A DNA stretch of 64,000 nucleotides from a candidate division WWE3 bacterium (GCA_013335095.1 JAAXWF010000002.1:80516-144515); one strand, 5' to 3'. Positions 5,649 to 59,269 are shown, numbered from the stretch's first letter. Translations and numbers: made by a program. Notes: a model not told the origin generated them from the sequence alone.

Positions 5649-8579
5649 ATGAAGAATAGTAATACAAATAAAAACTATTTAGCTGTTATTGTTGTAGCAA
5701 CGGTATTAATGGTAACTTCAATTATAGGAATATCAACATATTATCCACCAACTAAAGGCTCCCTTTCTACTATATTTCCCAAAAAAGAATCTTCGGCACA
5801 AACCGGAACTCTTCAGGTTAGCAACAACTTAATCCTGAATCAAAATAACGAACGTTTTATCTTTAAAGGCGTCAATTTGGAATTTTACCGAGACATGAAT
5901 GTCAGTAATGTAACGTATACCGGTTGGGAAAAAAGAAATCAGATTGTTTCAAAACTAAAATCACTAGGAATAAATGCCGTACGTGTGAACTATAGATCAG
6001 ACAGTATCAAATCGACGGCAAATGGACATACAGAGAACGGAAACATCTCTCAGCTACTTGATATGCTAAAACTCTTTTCTGATAATGGTATTTATGTTAT
6101 GCCGAGTGACCACATCTTTACCGGCAATGACATAGCAAATAAAGAGAATCTTTCATTCCCAAATTTCAAGAAAGTAATTGATGATTCACGAGCTCGGGGA
6201 TATGAACACATGCTAATAATGAATCCTTACAATGAACCATATAATAACGAAAACTGGTCTGCATGGGCAAGCGAAAATAAATCTACGTTAGATTACTTGC
6301 GGTCAACGCTTCAGTTTAAGGGTCTTATAATCTTAGACAATCCATTATGGGCAGGAGCTATAAACGTAGACCAAGCAAAACAACTCCTAGCATATGACAA
6401 AACGTTACTTGGTGGCTCTACCGAATTAGCCTTTTCAAATCATTATTATCCCAATTGGGGATTAGATGGACCCAATCAAGTGATGACATCAGCAAAGTCA
6501 ATCCCTTTAATTTTAGGAGAGCTCGGCCAATGGTCTTCACAAGGATCTAATCCCAACTATGTAATATCAGTACTCGATTTACTGGTTAAGACAGGCATTC
6601 CAAATGGTCATAATGGTTTGTTCCCATGGATCTGGAATTGGAGTGATGCAAATACGATGACGAGTTCAGATCAGCTAACATTAAATAGTCATGGAGACTT
6701 ATTTGTTAATAACTATTATTCCAAAATTGTATCTAATTCGAATACTCCCGTTCCGTCTGCTGTAATAAATCCGACATCAACGCCAGTCACCGGAAACCAA
6801 TTATCCAATATCCCCTCAACAATATTAAATGGACTTCGTGAAGGTGGGGTAAATCTTGTATTTGGTTGGTGGGATCCACATGGATATGCTCCGACGGAAT
6901 TCGACGATGATCTACCAATAATAAAAGCAAAAGGTGGAGGACATATCAGACTACCTGTAAGTTCTGACTTAATTGAGGAAGGTACAACTGGTAAGGTAAA
7001 GGAAAGCACTTGGCAAGAATTAAAAACATTTATCGAAAAAGCAAAGAGCAATGGCTTAGTCACAGTAATTGATTTGCATCACCTCGGCGTATTTTCTTTA
7101 GATTACTATCAAGGGAAGTCAACTGATACAAGCTGGACTGATTTTATGGATAAAATAAGATACACAGATTGGGCAGCCCGACATATATCATTATCTGAGG
7201 ACATTGCGAAACATATTAACAGAGATTTAGATAAAAGTTGGGTTGTTTTTCAACCTGCAAATGAACCAATATTTACCGGAAACAATGAACCGCAGATTTG
7301 GTATAACCACCAAAATAAACTAATACCTGCAATTCGTCGCGGTTGCAGCGACTGCACTATCTTTATCATGTCGCACTCCTGGCAAAGCATTGGTGCAACC
7401 GTAGATAATATGAACTTCTCTCAAATGCAATGGTGGGACAATAAGATGATCATTGACATGCATTACTATTCACCACTAGACCTAACGCATTGTGGATATA
7501 CTTCGAGTACGAATAATTGTGCTGGAAAACAATGGCCGGGAACATATACAGGTTGGACGACATTCGGTACTGAACATAACGGCACATGGGATAAAACATT
7601 TCTTGAAAGAGAATTTAAGCGGGTGTGGGATTATCAACAGAAAAACCCTGGTGTAGTAGTGCATTTTAGCGAGATAGGAACTCACTCGGGGCTAGAAGAT
7701 ATAACTCGATCTGCATATCTACGCGATGTGACATCAATACTAAGCGCCAATGGAGTTGGCTGGTCATGCTGGGAGTGGGATAAGAACTTTGGAATCATTA
7801 ATCATCCCAAAACGATTGAAGCATGTTTAGGTACAACCGGAATGTCGGTATCGCCATATCCAACATCGCAAGCTTCAATCACACCTACTCCGACATTACA
7901 TGTAAGCAATTCACCGACCCCGTCAACAACGCTTGCTCCAACTCAAACTCCTAGTGCTGGTTTTTATAGAGGAATCAATCTTGGTGGTACAGATATAGCA
8001 ATTAACGGAAACACCTGGTCTGGTGAAGCTACTGCTAATATAAGCGCACTTGGAACGTCAAAGTCAAACCAGTGGTTGAATTTAAATCCATCTGCTGACG
8101 CACAAATGACAAAAATGCTGCAAGACTGGCAAGAGCACTGGAATCATGAGATTACTATTAATAATATTGCTCCTGGTAAATATCGTTTATATGTTTATGG
8201 AGTAATGGATTGGAATGATTCAAATGCACAAACAATTACAAGCTATGTAAATAATCAGAGAATAGGAGAGTGGAAACCAGCTACGAGTGGATCATGGGTT
8301 AAGATGGGACCATGGGATGGGTTAATAACTAATGGAACGGCAACGATTACGACTAGTGCAACTAATAACAAACTTGCTGGAATAGAGATTTATCGTCTTT
8401 TAAGAGCTGATATAAATAACGATGGGATTGTTAACATTTTTGATCTTGGATTACTTTCAGTACATTATGGCGAGCAGTTAACAACATCCAGTGACGCTAT
8501 TGTTCGTAACTGCGATATTAATCAAGATAATGTAATTAATGTTTTCGATGTATCAATCCTAATACAAGAATATAAATAG
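5649..8579 (+). CDS. secreted multidomain glycoside hydrolase: two GH5-like (clan GH-A) catalytic domains, a putative carbohydrate-binding beta-sandwich, and a C-terminal type-I-dockerin-like module
   Basis: Signal-anchor (LAVIVVATVLMVTSIIGI). Domain 1: 'FKGVNLEFY…GINAVRVNY…IMNPYNEPYNNENW' (NEP acid/base) and 'ILGELGQWSS' (GExG-type nucleophile context). Domain 2: 'GHIRLPVSSD…VIDLHH…VFQPANEPIFTG…VHFSEIGTHSG'. The C-terminus 'DINNDGIVNIFDLGLLSVHYGE…CDINQDNVINVFDVSILIQEY' has two Ca-binding-loop-like dockerin segments. Confidence 0.75.
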   Translation: MKNSNTNKNYLAVIVVATVLMVTSIIGISTYYPPTKGSLSTIFPKKESSAQTGTLQVSNNLILNQNNERFIFKGVNLEFYRDMNVSNVTYTGWEKRNQIVSKLKSLGINAVRVNYRSDSIKSTANGHTENGNISQLLDMLKLFSDNGIYVMPSDHIFTGNDIANKENLSFPNFKKVIDDSRARGYEHMLIMNPYNEPYNNENWSAWASENKSTLDYLRSTLQFKGLIILDNPLWAGAINVDQAKQLLAYDKTLLGGSTELAFSNHYYPNWGLDGPNQVMTSAKSIPLILGELGQWSSQGSNPNYVISVLDLLVKTGIPNGHNGLFPWIWNWSDANTMTSSDQLTLNSHGDLFVNNYYSKIVSNSNTPVPSAVINPTSTPVTGNQLSNIPSTILNGLREGGVNLVFGWWDPHGYAPTEFDDDLPIIKAKGGGHIRLPVSSDLIEEGTTGKVKESTWQELKTFIEKAKSNGLVTVIDLHHLGVFSLDYYQGKSTDTSWTDFMDKIRYTDWAARHISLSEDIAKHINRDLDKSWVVFQPANEPIFTGNNEPQIWYNHQNKLIPAIRRGCSDCTIFIMSHSWQSIGATVDNMNFSQMQWWDNKMIIDMHYYSPLDLTHCGYTSSTNNCAGKQWPGTYTGWTTFGTEHNGTWDKTFLEREFKRVWDYQQKNPGVVVHFSEIGTHSGLEDITRSAYLRDVTSILSANGVGWSCWEWDKNFGIINHPKTIEACLGTTGMSVSPYPTSQASITPTPTLHVSNSPTPSTTLAPTQTPSAGFYRGINLGGTDIAINGNTWSGEATANISALGTSKSNQWLNLNPSADAQMTKMLQDWQEHWNHEITINNIAPGKYRLYVYGVMDWNDSNAQTITSYVNNQRIGEWKPATSGSWVKMGPWDGLITNGTATITTSATNNKLAGIEIYRLLRADINNDGIVNIFDLGLLSVHYGEQLTTSSDAIVRNCDINQDNVINVFDVSILIQEYK
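8397..8576 (+). other. dockerin type-I-like duplicated Ca2+-binding segment (C-terminus of the GH5 protein)
   Basis: Two copies of D-x-N-x-D-G/N-x-V-N-x-x-D followed by hydrophobic helices (DINNDGIVNIFDLGLL / DINQDNVINVFDVSIL). Confidence 0.6.
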
Positions 8580-36130: not shown

Positions 36131-36260
36131 TACAAAACGACTAAATTAACTATAGCACAATTTATAGAGATGAAGTGGGATAATTGGCTTTCATCTCGAT
36201 AAAAAGTCACCTACCAACATTTCAAACCGATGGTAATCAAAACTGCTACAATAATTAAAT

Positions 36261-38480
36261 ATGACGCCACCTCGGATAGAAAGATTTAAGCCCGATGACG
36301 AATTTGAACCCGGTGAGCAAGAGGCTAAAGAACGAGAAGTTGGCGGTGAGGAAAGACGATCTCCAGTAGAAGGTGTTGATATACACGAAGAAGAAATATT
36401 AAACGATCAAATAGCACAGCAAGAAGACCGACTTGAATTATTGCAGCAGGAAGCCCATACAACCGAGGACCGACTCGCCGCGGCAAGAGCAGAACTGGGA
36501 ATAGAAACAGCTGACCCCATAACGAATCGAACAAATGCCGAGATCAATCATATTCAAGAGACATTAAAACTACTTAGATATAAACTACTAACCGTAAGAC
36601 TACGAAAACCAGAACAAACACCAACACGGGATGAAAAAGAGAAAGAACCGCGCTTACCAAAACAACCAGTAGCAACAGAAAAAGAACTTTATGCAAATCT
36701 TGGCCGAATATTAGATGCAAAACAACGAATAATATTCAATCAAATTTATCGAAGAACTCTAGGTTGGCCAACAGAAAAAAATCTCGAAGCAATGGCAGGA
36801 TTGGAGAATTGGCAATCATTAGGGTGGGAATACTATGTACTATCCGGGCGGGAAGGTTTATACAAAATGAACTTTCCGATGGTTATTGAACGTGATCCCG
36901 GAAAAACAACGCCTGTTGATAGAGCAAGTAGCTTGGCGTCTGGTGCATTAGAGTTTGCTCATCAAGTTAGAACCGGAACACTACCGCAGGAAGTAATACC
37001 GGCAACATCAACATCCCCCGAAACACCACTCGATGAAACTCAATACGCAAGAATATTTGGATCATCACGAATGCCAGGAGAACGAGTAGATAGCATCCAA
37101 CTTTCTAAAAATAATCCGACTCATTTTTTGGTTAAGGTTAAAGGTCATTATGTCAGGATCGAAGGATTCCGTGATGATGAACCAATTCCTGCTGAAGAAG
37201 TAAGGGCACAAATTGCTGCAGCGGTCGAATCAATCAACGATTTACCAGACGCACCACCAATCGGTGCGATCACCGCGGGGAACCGAAAACGAAACTTTGA
37301 ATTTCGACAACGAATACAGAGCTCGACGGCGAATCAGGAACTCCAAGATGAAATTGACCAATCACTTTTTGTCGTATGTATAGATCCCGAATCGAAACCA
37401 GATACGCTTGCCGATGAAATGGCCGAAGTAAGAGACAGCAAAGGGAAAAACCTAGGAAATCGAGAGTATAATAAAGGACTTCAAATTATTGTCAGCGGAT
37501 CGGATGAAAGAGGAGCATCAGCTGGATTTTCATTTGAACATGCACTTGTAGATGGAACTGTCGGTGGACGATTTGCTGTAGATGTATCACGAATGGCCCG
37601 ACGTATCGAGTATCAAGGAGAACCACAACGAGCAGAACAAATTGAAATTAAAGATTGGGAATCGTCTCCTCAACTCGCTGAAATGGCTCAAGCAGCACAG
37701 GCTGAGGTAGAAAAAAAATTGGAAAACAGTGATGAAACGACCTTTGAACTTGAGGGTGATTGGCTAGAGCGTTGTAAACAATTTGGTATAAAAGGTGATA
37801 CGGCATTTCAGATGGCGCTCCAAATTGCAGAGTATATGAAATATCGAAAGCCGATCTCGAATTCTGAACAAGTTAGTCTGCGAGCGTTTGAAAAAGGTCG
37901 GATTAATCCAACAGGCGTGACAACTCATGGGGTCAAAGAATTCTTGCGTGATTTTGGTGAAGTAATATCAGCAGTAGAACACGTTGAAGAAGACGGGGAC
38001 GTTGAAAAAGCCATACGCCAACCAGCATATGCAAAGCGCCTCGGACAGGCTCTGGCCAAAGCAATTCAAGATCATGAGAAAACTATCGATCTTGCCAAAT
38101 CCGGAAAAGGCGTAGAAACTCACTTAATGGCTCAATGGGCGGCATTAAACCCTAGCAATCCGAGTCTAAACGCCGAGGCTCAAACCGCAGCAGATAACCT
38201 TTTTCGAAATCCCGCGATGGGTGTACGTTCATTCCTACAACCTATTTTAGTTAGTTCAAACTTAAGACCACGTTCCGATCGTGGAGAGGTGGTTGCGGCA
38301 GGGACAAAGCCTTCTCGAAGTAAAAGAGGAAATCTGTCATTAGGATATTTATTACAAGGTAGAAAAATCTCGGTAAATGCCCGCACCGAGGGTAAGATGA
38401 AGGATCATGCCGAAGATATTAGCCACTATCTTGAATCGGCGCTTAATATTGTCGCTGAACTTGCTCCATATACTCAATAA
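36261..38480 (+). CDS. choline/carnitine O-acyltransferase family (Carn_acyltransf-like) protein with ~150-aa acidic coiled N-extension
   Basis: 'YARIFGSSRMPGERVDSIQLSKNNPTHFLVKVKGHYVRIEGFRDDEPIPAEEVRAQI' parallels the family region '…Q..kiFstcRiPg...Dsi.....+.p.HivV..rg.fy.l.v...dG.pl...ei..Ql'. 'GFSFEHALVDGTVGGRF' matches the catalytic-His motif hEHxxxDG of carnitine/choline acyltransferases. GC is visibly higher (~45%+) than the flanks. Confidence 0.55.
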   Translation: MTPPRIERFKPDDEFEPGEQEAKEREVGGEERRSPVEGVDIHEEEILNDQIAQQEDRLELLQQEAHTTEDRLAAARAELGIETADPITNRTNAEINHIQETLKLLRYKLLTVRLRKPEQTPTRDEKEKEPRLPKQPVATEKELYANLGRILDAKQRIIFNQIYRRTLGWPTEKNLEAMAGLENWQSLGWEYYVLSGREGLYKMNFPMVIERDPGKTTPVDRASSLASGALEFAHQVRTGTLPQEVIPATSTSPETPLDETQYARIFGSSRMPGERVDSIQLSKNNPTHFLVKVKGHYVRIEGFRDDEPIPAEEVRAQIAAAVESINDLPDAPPIGAITAGNRKRNFEFRQRIQSSTANQELQDEIDQSLFVVCIDPESKPDTLADEMAEVRDSKGKNLGNREYNKGLQIIVSGSDERGASAGFSFEHALVDGTVGGRFAVDVSRMARRIEYQGEPQRAEQIEIKDWESSPQLAEMAQAAQAEVEKKLENSDETTFELEGDWLERCKQFGIKGDTAFQMALQIAEYMKYRKPISNSEQVSLRAFEKGRINPTGVTTHGVKEFLRDFGEVISAVEHVEEDGDVEKAIRQPAYAKRLGQALAKAIQDHEKTIDLAKSGKGVETHLMAQWAALNPSNPSLNAEAQTAADNLFRNPAMGVRSFLQPILVSSNLRPRSDRGEVVAAGTKPSRSKRGNLSLGYLLQGRKISVNARTEGKMKDHAEDISHYLESALNIVAELAPYTQ

Positions 38481-38510
38481 AAAACCGCCAAAGAAGGCGG
38501 TTTGGCAAAA
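38481..38510. terminator. bidirectional rho-independent terminator between convergent genes
   Basis: A perfect hairpin aaccgcc-aaagaa-ggcggtt (38483-38502) is flanked by A-run upstream and T-containing tract downstream. Read on the - strand it is followed by TTTTTTATT, which is strong for the - gene 38520..39179. Confidence 0.5.
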
Positions 38511-38519
38511 TAACGGCAG

Positions 38520-39179
38520 CTATTTTGCAATTTGGTCGATACGTTGTCTTATTCCTGCAATTCGTCGACTGAGTTGATCACGTCGGCGTCCGAGATCTCG
38601 TGATTCTAACATCAGTTGAAGGCGTTGAGTGTCGATCTCGATACGTTCCTGTAGTAGGGCTTGATAATTAGGTTCGGCATCGGGGCGTTGATCCTGACGT
38701 GATTGCATAAGCGACACGATATGCTCCGGGGATAGAGCAATGATCTCACACGAAGAGACCTGCTGTTTCGTAAGATGATGCTCATAACCTCCTTTGACTG
38801 AATTCCATCGGATCCAGGTATGAGCTCCCACGACTTTGTGCCCCAGACCGAAAAAAGGTTCCCGCCACGAAATCCCAACGCCAACACGCAGCATTATCCG
38901 CTGATAGGCAATAATCAATCGGAATTGGTTGTGCAGATAAGCCGCGCTTCCAAAAGCATGACTCATCTCATGGAGCACAACCGGCCACAACTGCCATTCA
39001 CCCAATACAAGAAAGTCACCGAGATATGTTGGATGTTGGAAGGTAAAAAGCAAAGATCGACGGGCTGATGGCCCAGACAATTTCTGGCTTTCAAATACGA
39101 CCAAGGGCTGTTGCGTGATGTAGGGAATCCGGGCGACGATAGCATGTACGATTTGTGGATCAGACATACGATCCTCCAT
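38520..39179 (-). CDS. HExxH-motif putative zinc metallohydrolase (possibly DUF45/YgjP-like) with C-terminal coiled-coil tail
   Basis: 'VLHEMSHAFGSAAYLHNQF' is H-E-x-x-H plus a third His spaced as in YgjP/DUF45-type metal sites. The C-terminal 60 aa are R/Q/L-rich heptad-like. No TM. Family assignment is tentative. Confidence 0.45.
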   Translation of the reverse strand: MEDRMSDPQIVHAIVARIPYITQQPLVVFESQKLSGPSARRSLLFTFQHPTYLGDFLVLGEWQLWPVVLHEMSHAFGSAAYLHNQFRLIIAYQRIMLRVGVGISWREPFFGLGHKVVGAHTWIRWNSVKGGYEHHLTKQQVSSCEIIALSPEHIVSLMQSRQDQRPDAEPNYQALLQERIEIDTQRLQLMLESRDLGRRRDQLSRRIAGIRQRIDQIAK

Positions 39180-39308
39180 AGATACAATGTGCCAATACGC
39201 TTCGCTGAGTGAATGCTATCAAAGTTTTAAGTTTTTCTCAAATTGAATTGAAAGTAAAAAGAATCAGGAGCCAGCATCCAGCCGGCTCCTGTGATTTATG
39301 CGTACAAA

Positions 39309-40460
39309 CTATTCCGCCGAGACCTCCTCAGCGACTTCTGCTGGCCCCTCGGCCAGGCCGTCCTCAGCCTCCGTTTCTGCGGGCTGCGCCACGGCAGCCT
39401 TGCCCGGAGCCTCCATCGCTCCGACGCAGTCACGAAGAAGTTGGATGGCCGGATCCAGTCGAATCTTGGTGCGAAGATCAGGCCGGTCCTGGGGGATCGG
39501 CGATGTCCTACTGCCATTCAGCAGATGTGGTACGTATGGATTCCCCCCCTTGGTCGGAGTGACCAAGTGAGCAAACCACACACCAACCATCTGCAGCGCC
39601 TCGGCCTCCTCGTCGGTCAGATCCTGACCCCGCAGCCGAGCTTCGGTCTTACGAACCGATGCAATGAGCCCCGGAACCTCGCGCAGGTCCCGAATGCCGC
39701 ACGCCAGAATACCAAAGTGCCCCTTGTCGATGACGACACTAAGGGCAACATCGACCTTGGCCTTTGCCGCAGTCCTCCGAAGTGGGCTAGCCAAATTGTC
39801 AGGGGTGACAATCAGACCGATACGCCGACCGTTCGGCAGCACTTCAACCAGAATCAGTGGCTCCGCAGTGTTAGAAGGGCGCTTGATCTGGCTAACGACG
39901 AGCGGACGCACCAGGGCCGCCTGGTTTTGGCGGCGGGTGTTCGCCCGAATTGAATCGACATAGGTGCGAGCGAATTGGAGAACCTCATCATCTGAGGAAT
40001 CCTCCATACCCAAAATCGCCCCAGCCAGAGTCGCCCAGCGGCTATGAAGTTCACCGGTGTCCGATAGGGTGGCCAGGTTCACGACATCCCGGTAGTCGCC
40101 CAGGGGTGACTGAGGATGGGTAAACATATTCCGCGTCAGTCGGTTGAACTTGGCTGCCGCCGACGGGTCTTTCCCATCGTGGTGATCGAGTTTAGAATCA
40201 GGACCACCGCAGTCACAGAACCAATAGGCGACGAAGTTCACCATCGTATAGTATCCATCCGGCCGAGGCCTGATGACTTTACCATTCGACAGACGGTACT
40301 CCGTACCCTGCGGAATAAGCCGAAGCTCGATCGGCCCCTCAAATCGGAGCTGCTCACGAATGAAGTCCTGAGCCATCAGCATAGTGATGATGGCATCGGC
40401 ATCTCTGTGCCCCAAAAGCACGTGACGCTCAATCCTTCCGGCACCATTCACCGGGGGCAT
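39309..40460 (-). CDS. hypothetical protein (383 aa) in a ~60% GC segment; acidic Ala/Glu-rich C-terminal tail
   Basis: Longest ORF in a region where high GC produces many overlapping shadow ORFs on both strands. It has a strong SD (aaggaggg) 4 nt upstream of the ATG at 40460. No family recognised. Confidence 0.5.
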   Translation of the reverse strand: MPPVNGAGRIERHVLLGHRDADAIITMLMAQDFIREQLRFEGPIELRLIPQGTEYRLSNGKVIRPRPDGYYTMVNFVAYWFCDCGGPDSKLDHHDGKDPSAAAKFNRLTRNMFTHPQSPLGDYRDVVNLATLSDTGELHSRWATLAGAILGMEDSSDDEVLQFARTYVDSIRANTRRQNQAALVRPLVVSQIKRPSNTAEPLILVEVLPNGRRIGLIVTPDNLASPLRRTAAKAKVDVALSVVIDKGHFGILACGIRDLREVPGLIASVRKTEARLRGQDLTDEEAEALQMVGVWFAHLVTPTKGGNPYVPHLLNGSRTSPIPQDRPDLRTKIRLDPAIQLLRDCVGAMEAPGKAAVAQPAETEAEDGLAEGPAEVAEEVSAE

Positions 40461-40559
40461 GGCTCCCTCCTTATTGCGTCGTTATCAAGACGCAAACATA
40501 TTGGATGTGCGAAACAGAATAATTATAGCAAAATAATGCAAAGAAATAAACTATAGGAT

Positions 40560-40598
40560 AACAACTATAAACGCCACTGATAATAAACCAGCGGCGTC
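40560..40598 (-). terminator. probable rho-independent terminator downstream of the RRM-protein gene
   Basis: Hairpin acgccactg / cagcggcgt (9 bp with one G·U-compatible position on the - strand transcript), loop ataataaac, followed on the - strand by a T-rich tract ttatagttgtt. Confidence 0.35.
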
Positions 40599-40614: not shown

Positions 40615-40887
40615 TTACTCACCGTTGTTGTTTTGGTTACGCTCAGGACGAGCTTCATTAACAACCAATGGGCGACCACCAAAATCCTTCTCATGAAACA
40701 TTTGAATAGCTGCTTGAGCAGCTTCTGGAGTTGCCATTTCAACAAACCCAAAACCGCGACTTCTTCCAGTATCACGATCAAGAATAACTTTAGCTGACTT
40801 TACTTCACCAGCTGCTGAAAAAGCTTGCATGAGCTCTTCATCAGTAGTCGAAAACGGCAGATTACCAATATATAGTCGTAAATTCAT
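40615..40887 (-). CDS. RNA-binding protein, single RRM domain (glycine-poor short form)
   Basis: RNP-2 'LYIGNLPF' and RNP-1 'RGFGFVEM' at canonical spacing. Confidence 0.85.
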   Translation of the reverse strand: MNLRLYIGNLPFSTTDEELMQAFSAAGEVKSAKVILDRDTGRSRGFGFVEMATPEAAQAAIQMFHEKDFGGRPLVVNEARPERNQNNNGE

Positions 40888-41147: not shown

Positions 41148-41756
41148 CTACGTGATCAAATTTCTAAATAGATCCAAAAATTTGGGATAATTAATATAGT
41201 AGATAAATCCAGTAAAAAGCATCAACCCGGGGAATATCACCGATTTTTCAAACATACCACCGGCTTTAACTCGTAGAGCTTTAACTGGGGGGAACCCAAA
41301 ATTCCATGGCAAGGGAAAGAGTAGCGGAACGCCTTCCTTGGTAAACGTGTCCATAAAAATATGCGAAACGAGTCCGATCATAAACGCCCACCACACCACA
41401 TTCATATCGACTACTAAAATATGCGCAATAGAACTTAGCAGCCATTGCATACCGATGCCAATAATAACTATTCCGACAATAGAGTGAGCGATCATTCGAT
41501 GTCCTCCAAAGAGTGGACTTAGAATTCTCCCCCAAATACTGCCCGCAGGAATACGCCGCCAGAGGTCAGAGGTGGGTTGATCAAGATCAGGGGCTAACCC
41601 GCCAATAAAATTAGCCGCCAATGAAACCAGCATTGTCGCCATGGTCATTTGAGGAAGGGGAGTATAAGCAGCAACGATGCTTAAGGTCGTAAATGCCGCT
41701 AAATCATGAGTTCGGGCTACCATACCATTTAGTCTAGCATAAATAATACGTGACAA
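41148..41756 (-). CDS. membrane-bound metal-dependent hydrolase, YdjM/DUF457-like
   Basis: Polytopic membrane protein with 'GGHRMIAHS' and 'SHIFMDTFTKEGVPLLFPL', characteristic of the LexA-regulated inner-membrane hydrolase family. Confidence 0.5.
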   Translation of the reverse strand: MSRIIYARLNGMVARTHDLAAFTTLSIVAAYTPLPQMTMATMLVSLAANFIGGLAPDLDQPTSDLWRRIPAGSIWGRILSPLFGGHRMIAHSIVGIVIIGIGMQWLLSSIAHILVVDMNVVWWAFMIGLVSHIFMDTFTKEGVPLLFPLPWNFGFPPVKALRVKAGGMFEKSVIFPGLMLFTGFIYYINYPKFLDLFRNLIT

Positions 41757-41842: not shown

Positions 41843-43033
41843 CTACAGGGTTCGAGGACGCATTAATGCGAGCATGGCTTCGTTTCCCTGATGCTCTCTC
41901 CGGCGTTCCTCATCACACTCCTGAGTACGCTGATTGTAAGCAGTAATCGCAATTCGAATTGCATCAAGGGTTGCAACCGCCCAATCTTCAGACAGCATGC
42001 GCTGAGCTGCTGATAGCATCCGTTCGTCATACACGCCGAATCGACTCAGATTGGTAACAGCAATGCTGGATTCGACTAATTGACGACGAATAGATGATAA
42101 CTCAGGACGATCGGCTGCATACAGATAGACCGAAGCAACCGTATGGGTATCGATAAAACGCACCCCATCAGGCCACTCTAGTTCCAGTAGAAACGCGATC
42201 TGTGCCATTATCAGTTCCCAGTCATACCGGGAACCATCAGTACGATCGACCGACCTTTCCAGCGTGTATATAAACCACGGCAAAATGAGTTCATCATCAC
42301 GTGGCAAGATTCCGTTGTAAGACAACTGCTCAACGATCAACTGCTGAACGTGCTGATTTGCCCGAGCCCTCCATTCACGAGGGGTGAGAGGATCAAGCAT
42401 AAGATCCTCAAACGGCCACCACATATCTTCCATCCCGCCATACACGGGTGTGCCCAAATCATATACAAGAAACATCCTCTCGGCTAACTCAGGATTAGCA
42501 CGAGAATGAATGCCTCGTATTATCTGGCTATACCGAATCAATAGCCAACGAGCCCGATCTCCAAATCGCTCGGGATGCTGATGAACCCATCCCGCGAAGA
42601 GCTCAATTAAGACCGCACACCACCCAATCAAACGATCGGGGATTTTGCTGCAGTCAAGCGAGTAATACGTTAAGAGACTTTCCGACGCCCCATATTGGGC
42701 AATGTCCCAATTTACGAAGGGCTGAACGAGATTCAAATCTGGTGCGAGCAATAGTAACAATGCCCGCGCACCAAACCCGACATCATACCGATCTGGCTGA
42801 CTATATAAATCAACCAGGTCGTGTAGGCTACGTGACTTATGCAAAAGCCAGCGGCGCCAAATTGAATGTTGGGTCTTAAGGATCAATTGTTCCTTAAGTG
42901 CATTACGCCAAAGAGCAACAAGCTGCTTATACACAGCGCGATCCCGTTGTGGTAAGACCCATCCCTGAAGAACCAACCGGAAGTCAGTACCCGAATGCAT
43001 GCGAAGCATAGCTCCTCCTTGTCCTAACACCAA
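41843..43033 (-). CDS. hypothetical cytoplasmic protein (396 aa), Trp/Arg-rich, moderately GC-elevated
   Basis: Long uninterrupted ORF with no recognisable motifs; composition differs from neighbouring low-GC genes. Confidence 0.45.
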   Translation of the reverse strand: MVLGQGGAMLRMHSGTDFRLVLQGWVLPQRDRAVYKQLVALWRNALKEQLILKTQHSIWRRWLLHKSRSLHDLVDLYSQPDRYDVGFGARALLLLLAPDLNLVQPFVNWDIAQYGASESLLTYYSLDCSKIPDRLIGWCAVLIELFAGWVHQHPERFGDRARWLLIRYSQIIRGIHSRANPELAERMFLVYDLGTPVYGGMEDMWWPFEDLMLDPLTPREWRARANQHVQQLIVEQLSYNGILPRDDELILPWFIYTLERSVDRTDGSRYDWELIMAQIAFLLELEWPDGVRFIDTHTVASVYLYAADRPELSSIRRQLVESSIAVTNLSRFGVYDERMLSAAQRMLSEDWAVATLDAIRIAITAYNQRTQECDEERRREHQGNEAMLALMRPRTL

Positions 43034-51619: not shown

Positions 51620-52084
51620 ATGCCTGGGATTATCATCCCTCAGGTGGAGCAGATGGACGGCGACGACATTGTCGAGCATTGTCGGGCTGGTGATCTCTTG
51701 GGCGACATCGTCTCGGCAATCGCCCATATGGACCAGGGCGGCTATGGTCCGATTAATTCAGAAATGGGCTGTGGAATCGCCATCAGTGTGATTCCACCGT
51801 TCATTGCTCACAACGTGGAATTGTATCGGGTGTACCGTCTGGTGATGTTCGGGCCAAAACGCAAAATCGGCATCTTAGCCGAATACCAGGCCACCATCGC
51901 TGGCTCGGGCGATAAGCCTGGACCGTTCCCCGGTCTCACCGAGGGTCGGCGGTTCTTCAGTGGTATCAGCCTGGGACTCAGCTCAGGTGTCTCCCTGGAG
52001 ATGGGTGCCGAGCGATTCATGTCAATCGCACACATCGCGAGGGACGCCATCGCCCAGGCATCCCAACGCCTTGGCATTGATTAG
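51620..52084 (+). CDS. hypothetical protein (154 aa) in a short GC-rich (~58%) segment
   Basis: Longest of several overlapping ORFs in a compositional island of about 500 bp; no family recognised. The upstream hairpin agcctc-aata-gaggct (≈51583-51598) may be regulatory. Confidence 0.35.
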   Translation: MPGIIIPQVEQMDGDDIVEHCRAGDLLGDIVSAIAHMDQGGYGPINSEMGCGIAISVIPPFIAHNVELYRVYRLVMFGPKRKIGILAEYQATIAGSGDKPGPFPGLTEGRRFFSGISLGLSSGVSLEMGAERFMSIAHIARDAIAQASQRLGID

Positions 52085-55730: not shown

Positions 55731-56546
55731 TCATGTCCGTTGACACAAGAATAGCATCTTCATGCCGTGGCCGGTACCAAATGGGGTGCCGTCATAATCA
55801 GACCAGCGATCGATAATCGTAAACCCTGCATCTGCTAGAAGAAGTTCCCATTCAGCCGGGAAGATCATCCGCATCGTTGTTTGGGAGCGATAACACCGAT
55901 TGGCAATAAGCCGGCCAATAGCATCATAAAAGTTGTAGAAGTACGTTACTTCGAGCAACTGTGTCGCAGGATGATAGCGAGTAGTGTAGCTACGTACTAG
56001 ATTATAGCCATCCGCAAGCTGAGCCTCGCGCTCAATGATAGGAGCATGCCGAGTAAGGCCATGGGCTAACTTTGCCGGATCGGGTAAAAACACATCAGCC
56101 ACAAAGTGGCCACCAACCTGCAGATGGTTGTGACAGTTATGTAATGCGGCGCGCTGGTCGTGTGTAGTGAGCAGGTGCGCGAAGCTATGAAACGGGACAA
56201 GGACGAGGTTATATCGCTCGATACCTGCATTGACCGTGCGCATATCACCTTCTATCAACTGCAATTGTGATTGTAGGCTCGGGTCCTCGGCGGCTACTTT
56301 CGCACTTGCCCGAGAAAGCATATCTGGTGATAAATCAACACCAGTGACCCAATACCCAAGCTGCATTGCCTGCCAAGCGATGGGCAAGGTTATACGTCCG
56401 GTTCCGCACGCCATTTCAAGTACATGACCTCCCCGCGCATACATCCGGCAAAGACGTTTACTCCAGGCGATATCCGCTGTTAGATCCGCATATTCCGCAT
56501 CGTAATCAGGCGCATGTCGATAGAAATCGACGACCGAAGTGTCCAT
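55731..56546 (-). CDS. class I SAM-dependent methyltransferase
   Basis: Motif I 'VLEMACGTGRITLPIA' (hh[DE]hGxGxG), motif II region 'YNLVLVPF'. GC is moderately elevated. Confidence 0.7.
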   Translation of the reverse strand: MDTSVVDFYRHAPDYDAEYADLTADIAWSKRLCRMYARGGHVLEMACGTGRITLPIAWQAMQLGYWVTGVDLSPDMLSRASAKVAAEDPSLQSQLQLIEGDMRTVNAGIERYNLVLVPFHSFAHLLTTHDQRAALHNCHNHLQVGGHFVADVFLPDPAKLAHGLTRHAPIIEREAQLADGYNLVRSYTTRYHPATQLLEVTYFYNFYDAIGRLIANRCYRSQTTMRMIFPAEWELLLADAGFTIIDRWSDYDGTPFGTGHGMKMLFLCQRT

Positions 56547-57211: not shown

Positions 57212-59269
57212 CTACTTCGCTACAACCGGAATTGTTTGAATGTCGACTGAACGATTTGAGCCGTTTTCGTTCAGATTGAGTCCGAGCAACGACAGAATCC
57301 CTCCAATTGGAATTGAACCAATCAGTTGGAAGTTTGCCCGCTCACGAATCCGATTTATCGCCGAAACGACATCGGTCTCACCCTGCATAAGCTGTTCGAC
57401 CTGCTCCAAGGCATCAGCCAGGCTGAGATTCGAGAATACCCTTGGATCAATCTCACCAAGAACACCCCGTACCCGAGCCATGATCGAGACAAGACTCGAC
57501 CAAAGTTCGGTCGATTCAGGACTACCTCCACTACCAAAAAGATTACCGATTACTGGGATTTCATGCCCAACAACCGAAGCACCTTCGGATAGTGAAAGCA
57601 GCTGATTAATCAGCTGACTCATCTGACCGCCATTACCAAACAGCCTGACGTCCAGCTGAGGAGCCAGAGCTTTGAACGCCTCAAGTCGGGTTTCAGCCTG
57701 TAGCCGTGCCAGTTCGAGCTGAAGCGTATGATCCATACGAATCCGCTCAAGATCGACCAGTACGGGAGCCTCGGCGTATAGAGTAGCCAAGAGCCGCTGA
57801 GCTTCGATACTAGCGGCTTGCCTCGCCCTGTCGATCTCGACCTGGGCAAGACCTTCGGCACGAACGACCTCAACGCGCTTCTGGTCTACCGCGACCTGAG
57901 CTGCAGCAATTTCGGCAGCAGCCAAGCCTGATGCAGCTTCACGTGCTCGAGTTGCATTAGCCTCAACCAACGCAGCCTGTGCGGTGATCGTTGCCGATTC
58001 AGCCTGCGCGCGTGCCTGAGCAAGCTGAGCCTCAGTTTGTGCTCGAGTTGTAATACTCTGAGCCACGGCTTGTGATTCAGCGGCAATCCGCTCTGTTTCG
58101 GCGGCACTACCAGCAGAAATTAGCCGGACTTCTTTCTCACGCTCGGCAGCGGCTAAATCGCGTTGCCGGTCAATTGCAGTCTGCGCAGTTGTAGCTTCGC
58201 TCTGAAGCTGGATTTGAGCTGTTTGAACAGCCCGGTCCTTTTCAGCATCAGCTACGGCGCGACTCCGCGCGAGTTCAATATCTCGAGTCTGCTGAGCTGT
58301 AAGTCGCTCACCATCGAGGGCTATTTGAGCAAGCGCAGCGGAATGCTCACGCTGAGCGACGGTTTGATCACGTTCAACCTGAGCCAGGCGCAACTGGTGA
58401 GTTGCGGCGGCCAATGATTCTCGTTGATCATTCGTTGCCGTCTCAACATCGCGTTGAGTACGAAGCTCTCGCTGTTTAACATCCAGCGTTGTAGCCGTAG
58501 TCAATTCAGACTCACGGCGTGTTCTGGCATTATCGTCCTCAATGCGTGTTAATTCAGCGGCATTGATACCGATGGTCGTCTGAGCAGTAACCTCAGCCGT
58601 CGCTTGTCGAACGATTTGATCGTAGGCGTCACCGGCTAACCGGATTACACGCAAAAACGCCAAATCATAACCAAGCTCGGCCAGAGTCGTATTGACCCGG
58701 TCGGTCGCAACATCACCAAGACGTTGCATATTCGCAATAATCTCGTCGAGGGACATCGAGGCAGCCGCAACAATCAGCTGAGTCGTTGTTTCGGAGATAA
58801 TCGAGTGTACAAGACCCGACACGTCCGTACCGACACGCTGAGCAGCCACCAAGGCCTTTGACGAATCCAATTTAGCTTCGACATGAGCCCAGGCCCTAAA
58901 AGAGACCCGGTGCTTATCGAGGAGCTCAATGCCTCGCTCACCTTCACCAGAAATCTCAACGGTAAAGCTGTATGTTCGAAGCTTTACCACCTGAGCATTG
59001 GCGTTAAGCCAATAGATTGATGGCGCACCAGCGGTCTGACCGAATACGCTGGTTTCTTTACTCGGTGCCCAACTGTGAATCCCGTGGCCTACAACCACAT
59101 GGACTTCATCGGGCCGAACAATTACTCGATTACCAAAGCCAAATATGCGCCAAAATCCGCGCACGCGATCGGCTTCGGTCGAAAGAGAGGCCATAACTTC
59201 GGTGACCGACTGACCACGCCCACCCTGTGACGTATTCACGAATGATGCTCCTTCACTGTACGAATACAC
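57212..59269 (-). CDS. flotillin-like SPFH/band-7 domain protein with long Ala/Glu/Gln-rich coiled-coil
   Basis: N-terminal SPFH fold (…VKLRTYSFTVEISGEGERGIELLDKHRVSFRAWAHVEAKL…MSLDEIIANMQRLGDVATDRVNTTLAELGYDLAFLRVI…). It is followed by ~250 aa of AEAxRExE-type flotillin repeats. Distinctly GC-rich (~55%). Confidence 0.55.
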   Translation of the reverse strand: MYSYSEGASFVNTSQGGRGQSVTEVMASLSTEADRVRGFWRIFGFGNRVIVRPDEVHVVVGHGIHSWAPSKETSVFGQTAGAPSIYWLNANAQVVKLRTYSFTVEISGEGERGIELLDKHRVSFRAWAHVEAKLDSSKALVAAQRVGTDVSGLVHSIISETTTQLIVAAASMSLDEIIANMQRLGDVATDRVNTTLAELGYDLAFLRVIRLAGDAYDQIVRQATAEVTAQTTIGINAAELTRIEDDNARTRRESELTTATTLDVKQRELRTQRDVETATNDQRESLAAATHQLRLAQVERDQTVAQREHSAALAQIALDGERLTAQQTRDIELARSRAVADAEKDRAVQTAQIQLQSEATTAQTAIDRQRDLAAAEREKEVRLISAGSAAETERIAAESQAVAQSITTRAQTEAQLAQARAQAESATITAQAALVEANATRAREAASGLAAAEIAAAQVAVDQKRVEVVRAEGLAQVEIDRARQAASIEAQRLLATLYAEAPVLVDLERIRMDHTLQLELARLQAETRLEAFKALAPQLDVRLFGNGGQMSQLINQLLSLSEGASVVGHEIPVIGNLFGSGGSPESTELWSSLVSIMARVRGVLGEIDPRVFSNLSLADALEQVEQLMQGETDVVSAINRIRERANFQLIGSIPIGGILSLLGLNLNENGSNRSVDIQTIPVVAK

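Follow-up and report, generated by a model that had tools for sequence, protein, structure and literature searches.

Classical genomic islands are recognized as sharply bounded segments whose GC content, codon usage and tetranucleotide frequencies are atypical against a genome that is uniform elsewhere, and under the amelioration model, which Lawrence and Ochman are said to have set out in 1997, a neutral foreign signature reportedly decays over time. Atypical GC content is routinely read as recent transfer; this reading fails at the locus described here, which lies in a 64,000-nt stretch (the window) of a metagenome-assembled genome (MAG) of candidate division WWE3 (Patescibacteria), with an overall GC content of 41.2%. 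The first-pass annotation of the window had delimited a foreign, GC-rich island at 36,131–40,500, made up of three genes for a 'eukaryote-type' acyltransferase, an 'HExxH protein' and a protein of 383 amino acids (aa). As in a classical island, the deviation is sharply bounded. However, the anomalous unit is a single gene, that of the 383-aa protein, and, in agreement with the first-pass annotation, no mobility gene was found: no integrase-type Pfam domain occurs among the neighbouring open reading frames (ORFs) scanned, a tRNA scan of the whole window returned none, and the borders carry short chance repeats only and no direct repeats. Nor does the amelioration model predict that the gene should be syntenic and equally GC-rich in a second, near-saturated genome, as is observed here. 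The closest known systems to the 383-aa protein itself are the DHH/DHHA1 phosphoesterases (the NrnA nanoRNase/pAp phosphatase, PggH, the GdpP catalytic domain, RecJ and family II inorganic pyrophosphatase; PF01368, PF02272). We put at about 0.6 the probability that there is no three-gene island, and that the locus instead holds one GC-rich, DHH-like gene and two GC-rich orphan neighbours, long resident and with their composition held in both lineages.

In 300-nt windows the GC content is 55–61% across ~39,250–40,450, in keeping with the ~60% first reported for 39.3–40.5 kb. The edges of this peak are sharp and match one ORF together with its terminator hairpin (39,265–40,470). The peak is a single monocistronic gene on the minus strand (39309..40460; HGA91_03290) with its own promoter, ribosome-binding site and terminator. 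A GGAGG Shine-Dalgarno sequence can be read at 40466..40470, 5 nt 5' of the ATG, and the intrinsic terminator (39265..39291) consists of an 11-bp stem, 8 of its pairs being GC, and a subsequent T-run. The promoter (40522..40550; TTTATT, 17 nt and an extended -10 element, TGCTATAAT) was missed by a consensus scan and is inferred from an alignment of the intergenic region with that of the second genome described below. The gene has a GC content of 0.590 and GC contents at the three codon positions (GC1–GC3) of 0.68, 0.45 and 0.641 (z = 6.8 for GC3; window median 0.322), a composition resembling that of genes from a genome of ~57–60% GC. Several shadow ORFs of 80–220 aa overlap it on both strands, as had been noted. 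Their lengths are those expected from the codon content of the 383-aa protein (P = 0.10–0.87, 500 synonymous shuffles), and antisense ORFs in the second genome reach at most 82 aa; the antisense shadow ORFs were consequently rejected as real genes. Likewise, a known structured RNA was ruled out as the source of the peak, since the Rfam scan (gathering thresholds) and the tRNA scan of the whole window were both empty.

The atypical composition does not extend across the proposed island. Besides the 383-aa gene, only the 219-aa ORF (the 'HExxH protein'; 38520..39179, minus strand) deviates within it, and more weakly, with an intermediate GC content of 0.485 and a GC3 of 0.445 (z = 2.6). The acyltransferase gene (36261..38480, plus strand) has 43.3% GC, a GC3 of 0.286, which is below the window median (z = -0.7), and an ordinary codon-usage distance. 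Its small GC excess is due to GC1 (0.605), i.e. to amino-acid content, and ordinary 1-kb windows elsewhere in the stretch reach ~43–45% GC, so that the distinct segment of ~45% GC claimed for 36.3–38.5 kb does not stand out. Conversely, the anomaly recurs outside the interval. The 396-aa orphan at 41843..43033 (minus strand) is moderately GC-rich and of the same anomaly class (GC 0.493, GC3 0.471, z = 3.2), and the genes at 51,620–52,084 (z = 7.3), 55,731–56,546 (3.7) and 57,212–59,269 (3.1) are also deviant in GC3. With these four further GC-rich genes elsewhere in the window, there is no single three-gene island. The tetranucleotide and codon-usage analysis that had been proposed as a check confirmed the deviation at 39.3–40.5 kb, but found the acyltransferase gene ordinary and 57.3–59.1 kb as deviant in tetranucleotide distance as the peak itself. 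In the GC-rich genes all three codon positions are richer in GC, and arginine replaces lysine (R/(R+K) 0.73–0.89); they are scattered, with genes of native composition for a YdjM-family hydrolase (near-native) and an RRM protein (GC3 0.242) in between.

As to the more distant GC-rich genes, that at 51620–52084 (plus strand) codes for a 154-aa orphan with the most extreme composition in the window (GC 0.57, GC3 0.665), that at 55731–56546 (minus strand) for an S-adenosylmethionine (SAM) methyltransferase (GC 0.51), and that at 57212–59269 (minus strand) for a 685-aa orphan rich in A, Q, E and R (GC 0.53), which deviates most in tetranucleotides and whose mRNA-folding z-scores are the lowest (-2.5 to -2.75).

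P0003, to which the 383-aa protein is most closely related, is carried by L001, an independently assembled ENA metagenome contig from another sample. Gene order and relative orientation in L001 are as in the window: TypA, a 379-aa protein, YdjM, a small ORF, the RRM protein, the 383-aa homologue, a 209-aa ORF, an MFS transporter, an RCC1-repeat protein and a convergent PF00755 gene. Amino-acid identities between the two loci are 77% for TypA, 68% for YdjM, 71% for the RRM protein, 24% for the 396/379-aa pair (E = 4e-19), 33% for the acyltransferase and about 33–34% for the 383-aa protein and P0003. The latter two share indels in motifs I and II/III, unlike other family members. Similarly, the intergenic regions between the RRM and 383-aa genes can be aligned and share a TTTTTGCTAT block, the L001 promoter being TTGACT, 17 nt, TATTCT. 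The block comprising TypA, the 396-aa gene, YdjM, the RRM gene, the 383-aa gene, the 219-aa ORF and the convergent acyltransferase gene was present in the common ancestor of the window and L001. The MFS transporter and RCC1-repeat protein (6370–8871 in L001), between the 209-aa ORF and the acyltransferase gene, are absent from the window; gene content varies in this interval.

The 383-aa gene and its two GC-rich neighbours have a raised GC content in L001 as well. GC3 is 0.641 for the 383-aa homologue, 0.587 for the 379-aa gene (GC 0.55) and 0.586 for the 209-aa ORF, against a native median of 0.416, and the acyltransferase gene is AT-rich there too (GC3 0.335). At identical residues, fourfold sites of most genes agree at frequencies of 0.19–0.37 versus 0.25–0.29 expected if saturated, the exceptions being RRM (0.52 versus 0.45 expected) and a small excess in TypA (0.37 versus 0.27). 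Agreement is thus close to what composition predicts, and the two genomes have diverged almost to saturation at synonymous sites. Still, the GC content at fourfold sites of the 383-aa pair is 0.63 and 0.69. As the gene is GC-rich in both genomes despite near-saturation, its composition is maintained and gene-specific rather than that of an unameliorated import. The first-pass suggestion of an old acquisition therefore stands in part: any acquisition must be old, but a 'foreign' composition left over from transfer does not fit, the positional homologues in L001 being equally GC-rich despite near-saturation. The gene may originally have come from a GC-richer patescibacterium, ahead of the lineage split, but such an entry would leave the persistence of its composition unexplained. 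It is very unlikely that three homologous genes were independently inserted at three matching sites around native YdjM and RRM genes.

These observations bear on two readings in which the GC-rich DNA is a newcomer. A fragment of another organism joined into the contig during assembly or binning would account for composition alone, but the gene is intact and sits between an AT-rich, native-type promoter, Shine-Dalgarno and terminator context. The same neighbourhood in an independent assembly from another sample means that there is no chimeric join and that the arrangement is older than the lineage split. Such an artefact, which the first-pass annotation had itself discounted, can practically be dismissed; the features that it had listed are all present, namely three ORFs, AT-rich flanks, a Shine-Dalgarno sequence (GGAGG) and a bidirectional hairpin (38,482–38,503). 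Its own model, a recent or non-canonical foreign island of acyltransferase, HExxH and 383-aa genes not yet ameliorated, draws on the strong GC and tetranucleotide deviation at 39.3–40.5 kb, on the orphan-like nature of the proteins and on PF00755, regarded as a mainly eukaryotic family. It is nevertheless very improbable: the acyltransferase has native codon usage, the anomaly reaches genes outside the proposed island, and gene order and GC-richness are shared with the near-saturated L001 genome, which a TypA identity of 77% rules out as a very close relative.

Two further alternatives would renew the GC-richness within resident lineages. In one, the 383-aa gene, perhaps with the 219- and 396-aa ORFs, was anciently acquired from a GC-richer patescibacterium and then repeatedly overwritten by GC-rich alleles. 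The other loci of the family, which also count in favour of the maintained-composition reading, lie in unrelated contexts (GlyRS and mraZ in L002 and L005, AlaRS in L006, orphans in L110 and L111), on Patescibacteria contigs of 42–58% GC in which the composition of the gene is near-native. In favour of replacement, most members are native in contigs of 50–58% GC, and the 383-aa gene looks like one from a genome of ~57–60% GC. With YdjM as synteny anchor, 103 Patescibacteria loci besides L001 (74 + 29), all more distant than L001, were found to lack the 383-aa, 396-aa and acyltransferase genes, and the RRM–acyltransferase interval is variable, with MFS and RCC1 genes in L001 only. However, the potential donors share no flanking genes and hence provide no homology arms; three GC-rich genes interleaved with native YdjM and RRM genes would call for several precise patches per lineage; the promoter region, which is AT-rich, can be aligned between the two genomes; and no mobility genes, tRNA or repeats were found. 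We hold this course of events to be unlikely. The other alternative, GC-biased gene conversion, in which the many heteroduplex mismatches arising as alleles of fast-evolving polymorphic genes recombine are repaired to G/C with faster protein change, fits the low identities of the GC-rich genes, which are among the fastest in the block (24–35% versus 68–77% for their neighbours), the rise in GC at all codon positions with R for K, and the recurrence of the effect in the same genes of both lineages. It is likewise unlikely, as the fourfold enrichment is strand-asymmetric (A 0.10 versus T 0.26; G 0.37 versus C 0.26), which is unexpected for a symmetric process, the equally fast acyltransferase gene has the lowest GC3 of the block, and the GC boundaries track the ORF ends closely.

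Among the YdjM-anchored records, many GTDB representative MAGs titled 'uncultured Gammaproteobacteria' or 'Pseudomonadales' bear Patescibacteria-type YdjM loci (L007–L080); such titles appear to be placeholders, unfit for taxonomy.

We return to the reading of long-resident genes with maintained composition and its possible cause. At the fourfold sites of the 383-aa gene A falls to 0.10 (native 0.35) and G rises to 0.37 (native 0.16), with T kept at 0.26 and C at 0.26, and A is depleted likewise in the L001 homologue and in the other GC-rich genes. This strand asymmetry favours a transcript-level or transcription-linked cause over a symmetric, DNA-level one. In 300-nt windows, minimum free energy (MFE) z-scores average -1.77 for the GC-rich genes versus -0.10 for native ones (Mann-Whitney P = 7e-6), and, whichever shuffle is used (dinucleotide, codon-permutation or synonymous), the GC-rich genes score below zero. 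Seven family members gave z-scores of -1.1 to -2.3 against synonymous shuffles, the sense strand being more negative than the antisense. Our best guess would be transcript-level selection for an A-poor, G/U-rich and more structured mRNA that may be more stable or more slowly translated. Among the candidate causes, transcript-level selection is ranked above biased gene conversion, and the latter above repeated allele replacement. A GC-rich mutational equilibrium from which expressed genes depart through selection for AT is disfavoured, pooled intergenic DNA having 38% GC.

Several observations weigh against this reading. Neighbour genes in contigs of 48–60% GC have a mean MFE z-score of -0.76, with one at -2.6, and most of the mRNA-structure signal goes with high GC in general; it is to be taken as a lead and not as a finding. 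Codon-aware RNAalifold, at 44% nucleotide identity, returned no conserved helices. The acyltransferase gene evolves as fast (33% identity) and is AT-rich, so that the anomaly would not be expected from fast evolution alone. The identity of the 383-aa protein to P0003 (34%) is barely above that to the rest of the family (24–31%), and as the pair is barely closer than the family at large, independent replacement by diverged alleles may be conceivable. The homology between the 219-aa ORF and its positional counterpart in L001, the 209-aa ORF, is weak (E = 0.001). Finally, scans of genomes and metagenome contigs returned no syntenic locus beyond L001, and the statement that composition is maintained in both lineages rests on n = 2 genomes.

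More tentatively, the locus may be one instance of a wider pattern, in which a gene-specific force keeps some of the lineage-restricted, fast-evolving genes of Patescibacteria GC-rich and A-poor on the sense strand, in separate lineages and beyond synonymous saturation. This force might be selection on the transcript, favouring structure, stability or escape from nucleases, or else biased gene conversion acting locally. If this is true, composition-based calls of 'foreign DNA' would here mark a new intragenomic compartment and not horizontal transfer, and, if general, island callers that rely on composition would be mislabelling one class of resident genes across genomes of the candidate phyla radiation (CPR). 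A literature search found no report on maintained GC-rich genes in CPR bacteria. In another Patescibacteria genome, of 42% GC, an isolated ORF of 145–149 aa (L002 13346–13783 and L005 17651–18100, both minus strand) has a GC content of 0.55–0.57 and a GC3 of 0.66–0.67; single GC-rich genes may be recurrent in AT-rich CPR genomes.

The 383-aa protein, identical like the 739-aa acyltransferase to a GenBank entry on a 358,632-bp contig of the WWE3 MAG, belongs to a small family. Searched exhaustively with HMMER, 1.84 billion representatives yielded 8 other clusters (E 3.5e-41 to 5e-4), giving 9 in total, and all named members come from Patescibacteria MAGs; P0003 is the best match at 158 bits, with the next at 80 bits. 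The family alignment contains H-x(1-3)-D-x-D, (V/I)-D-x-G and D-H-H in the same order as DHH motifs I–III. Motif I (H18-R-D20-A-D22) takes the form H-x(1-3)-D-x-D in all 8 full-length members; D83 and G85 of motif II are invariant; and in motif III (D92-H93-H94) H94 is invariant, with NHH, DNH or DDH in others. A model built with AlphaFold2 (AF2) from the family alignment (predicted local distance difference test, pLDDT, 83) is confident and suggests a DHH/DHHA1-like fold. The protein is probably a remote, hitherto unannotated branch of the DHH superfamily and probably a phosphoesterase. Speaking against this assignment, the DHHA1 signature GGGH is replaced by a conserved C-terminal L-(L/F)-N-G-(S/T)-x-K, a Pfam scan of the protein gave no match, as befits remote membership at best, and the family profile against the PDB gave a non-significant E = 0.6 (0.62), to a family II pyrophosphatase. 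PF01368 itself matches weakly in 5 of the 9 members (best E 0.001). The protein would act as a metal-dependent phosphoesterase on a nucleotide or short oligonucleotide substrate. This DHH-type assignment is a first functional lead for an unannotated family comprising 9 clusters in 1.84 billion proteins. A word-indexed protein search with the 383-aa protein recovered the self match alone, tblastn against phages gave no match, exact-sequence contig look-ups with the 383-aa and acyltransferase proteins returned no record, and six GC-rich or orphan proteins had no match in PHROGs or PADLOC.

The acyltransferase gene is compositionally native, lineage-conserved and unrelated to the GC anomaly. Its 739-aa product shares with choline/carnitine O-acyltransferases (CrAT, ChAT, CPT2, CROT) the full-length domain and the catalytic His in E-H-x3-D-G. 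The PF00755 match (E = 1.3e-68; 232.4 bits against a cut-off of 22.3) spans residues 171–724 and profile positions 44–572 of 574, and E426-H427-x3-D431-G432 (SFEHALVDG) aligns to EHSPFDG of human ChAT, the motif being kept in the L001 orthologue as IEHSMADG. Compared with the animal enzymes, however, the window protein is distant (best E = 3e-21 to a solved structure), adds an acidic N-terminal extension of ~170 aa, and is encoded with native WWE3 codon usage by a gene that has a syntenic, 33%-identical orthologue in L001. The label 'eukaryote-type' is thus apt at the level of the Pfam family and not beyond it, given an E of only 3e-21 to the best-matching solved enzymes from eukaryotes. On account of its codon usage and syntenic orthologue, the protein is an old bacterial-lineage member rather than a recent import from eukaryotes. 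In this WWE3 lineage, whose lipid metabolism is very limited, an enzyme of the carnitine/choline acyltransferase family is thus encoded by a native and conserved gene. A word-indexed search with the protein, swamped by the low-complexity N-terminus, returned self matches alone; tblastn of the domain against plasmids gave no match, and no report on CPR PF00755 enzymes was found in the literature. The N-terminal extension (36261–36770) is coiled-coil-like, with a coding-strand AT skew of +0.4 to +0.5 across it, and is present in diverged form in the L001 orthologue. The gene ends at a bidirectional intrinsic-terminator hairpin (38482..38503; AAACCGCC-loop-GGCGGTTT, with A/T runs on both sides) placed between it and the convergent gene of the 219-aa ORF.

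Like the zincin (HExxH) metallopeptidases, the 219-aa ORF (215 aa from the GenBank start, M5) carries such a motif, HEMSH at residues 70–74, on which the first-pass name was founded. Unlike them, it has no family match by hidden Markov model (HMM), and the motif H70-E-M-S-H74 is lost in its single, weak positional homologue, the 209-aa ORF of L001, which has IRTSA there. On these two grounds, the candidate assignment as an HExxH metalloprotease is not supported. No match for the ORF was found in Pfam, NCBIfam, PHROGs or PADLOC, a word-indexed search gave the self match alone, and a single-sequence AF2 model was unusable (pLDDT 37).

On the downstream side of the window, which is upstream with respect to transcription of the 383-aa gene, that gene is followed by the terminator of the RRM gene (40570..40598), the 90-aa RRM-type RNA-binding protein itself (40615..40887; PF00076, E = 7.6e-24; NF058537, 100.6 bits), the YdjM-family membrane metal-dependent hydrolase (41148..41756; PF04307, E = 7.9e-23), all on the minus strand, the 396-aa orphan and TypA. 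The TTG called mechanically as the start of the 396-aa ORF and the listed ATG of TypA (43039, plus strand) are 5 nt apart, and the TypA family match starts at residue 34–36; the true starts of both are probably internal. On the upstream side lie five tandem giant genes for Laminin_G_3/DUF2341 proteins (8614–36130, minus strand; paralogues of 1,675–2,076 aa), the 2 scanned having six Laminin_G_3 domains each in addition to DUF2341; this array is not beside the acyltransferase gene in L001. Farther upstream (5649–8579, plus strand), this Patescibacteria genome encodes a GH5 cellulase with a C-terminal type I dockerin domain.

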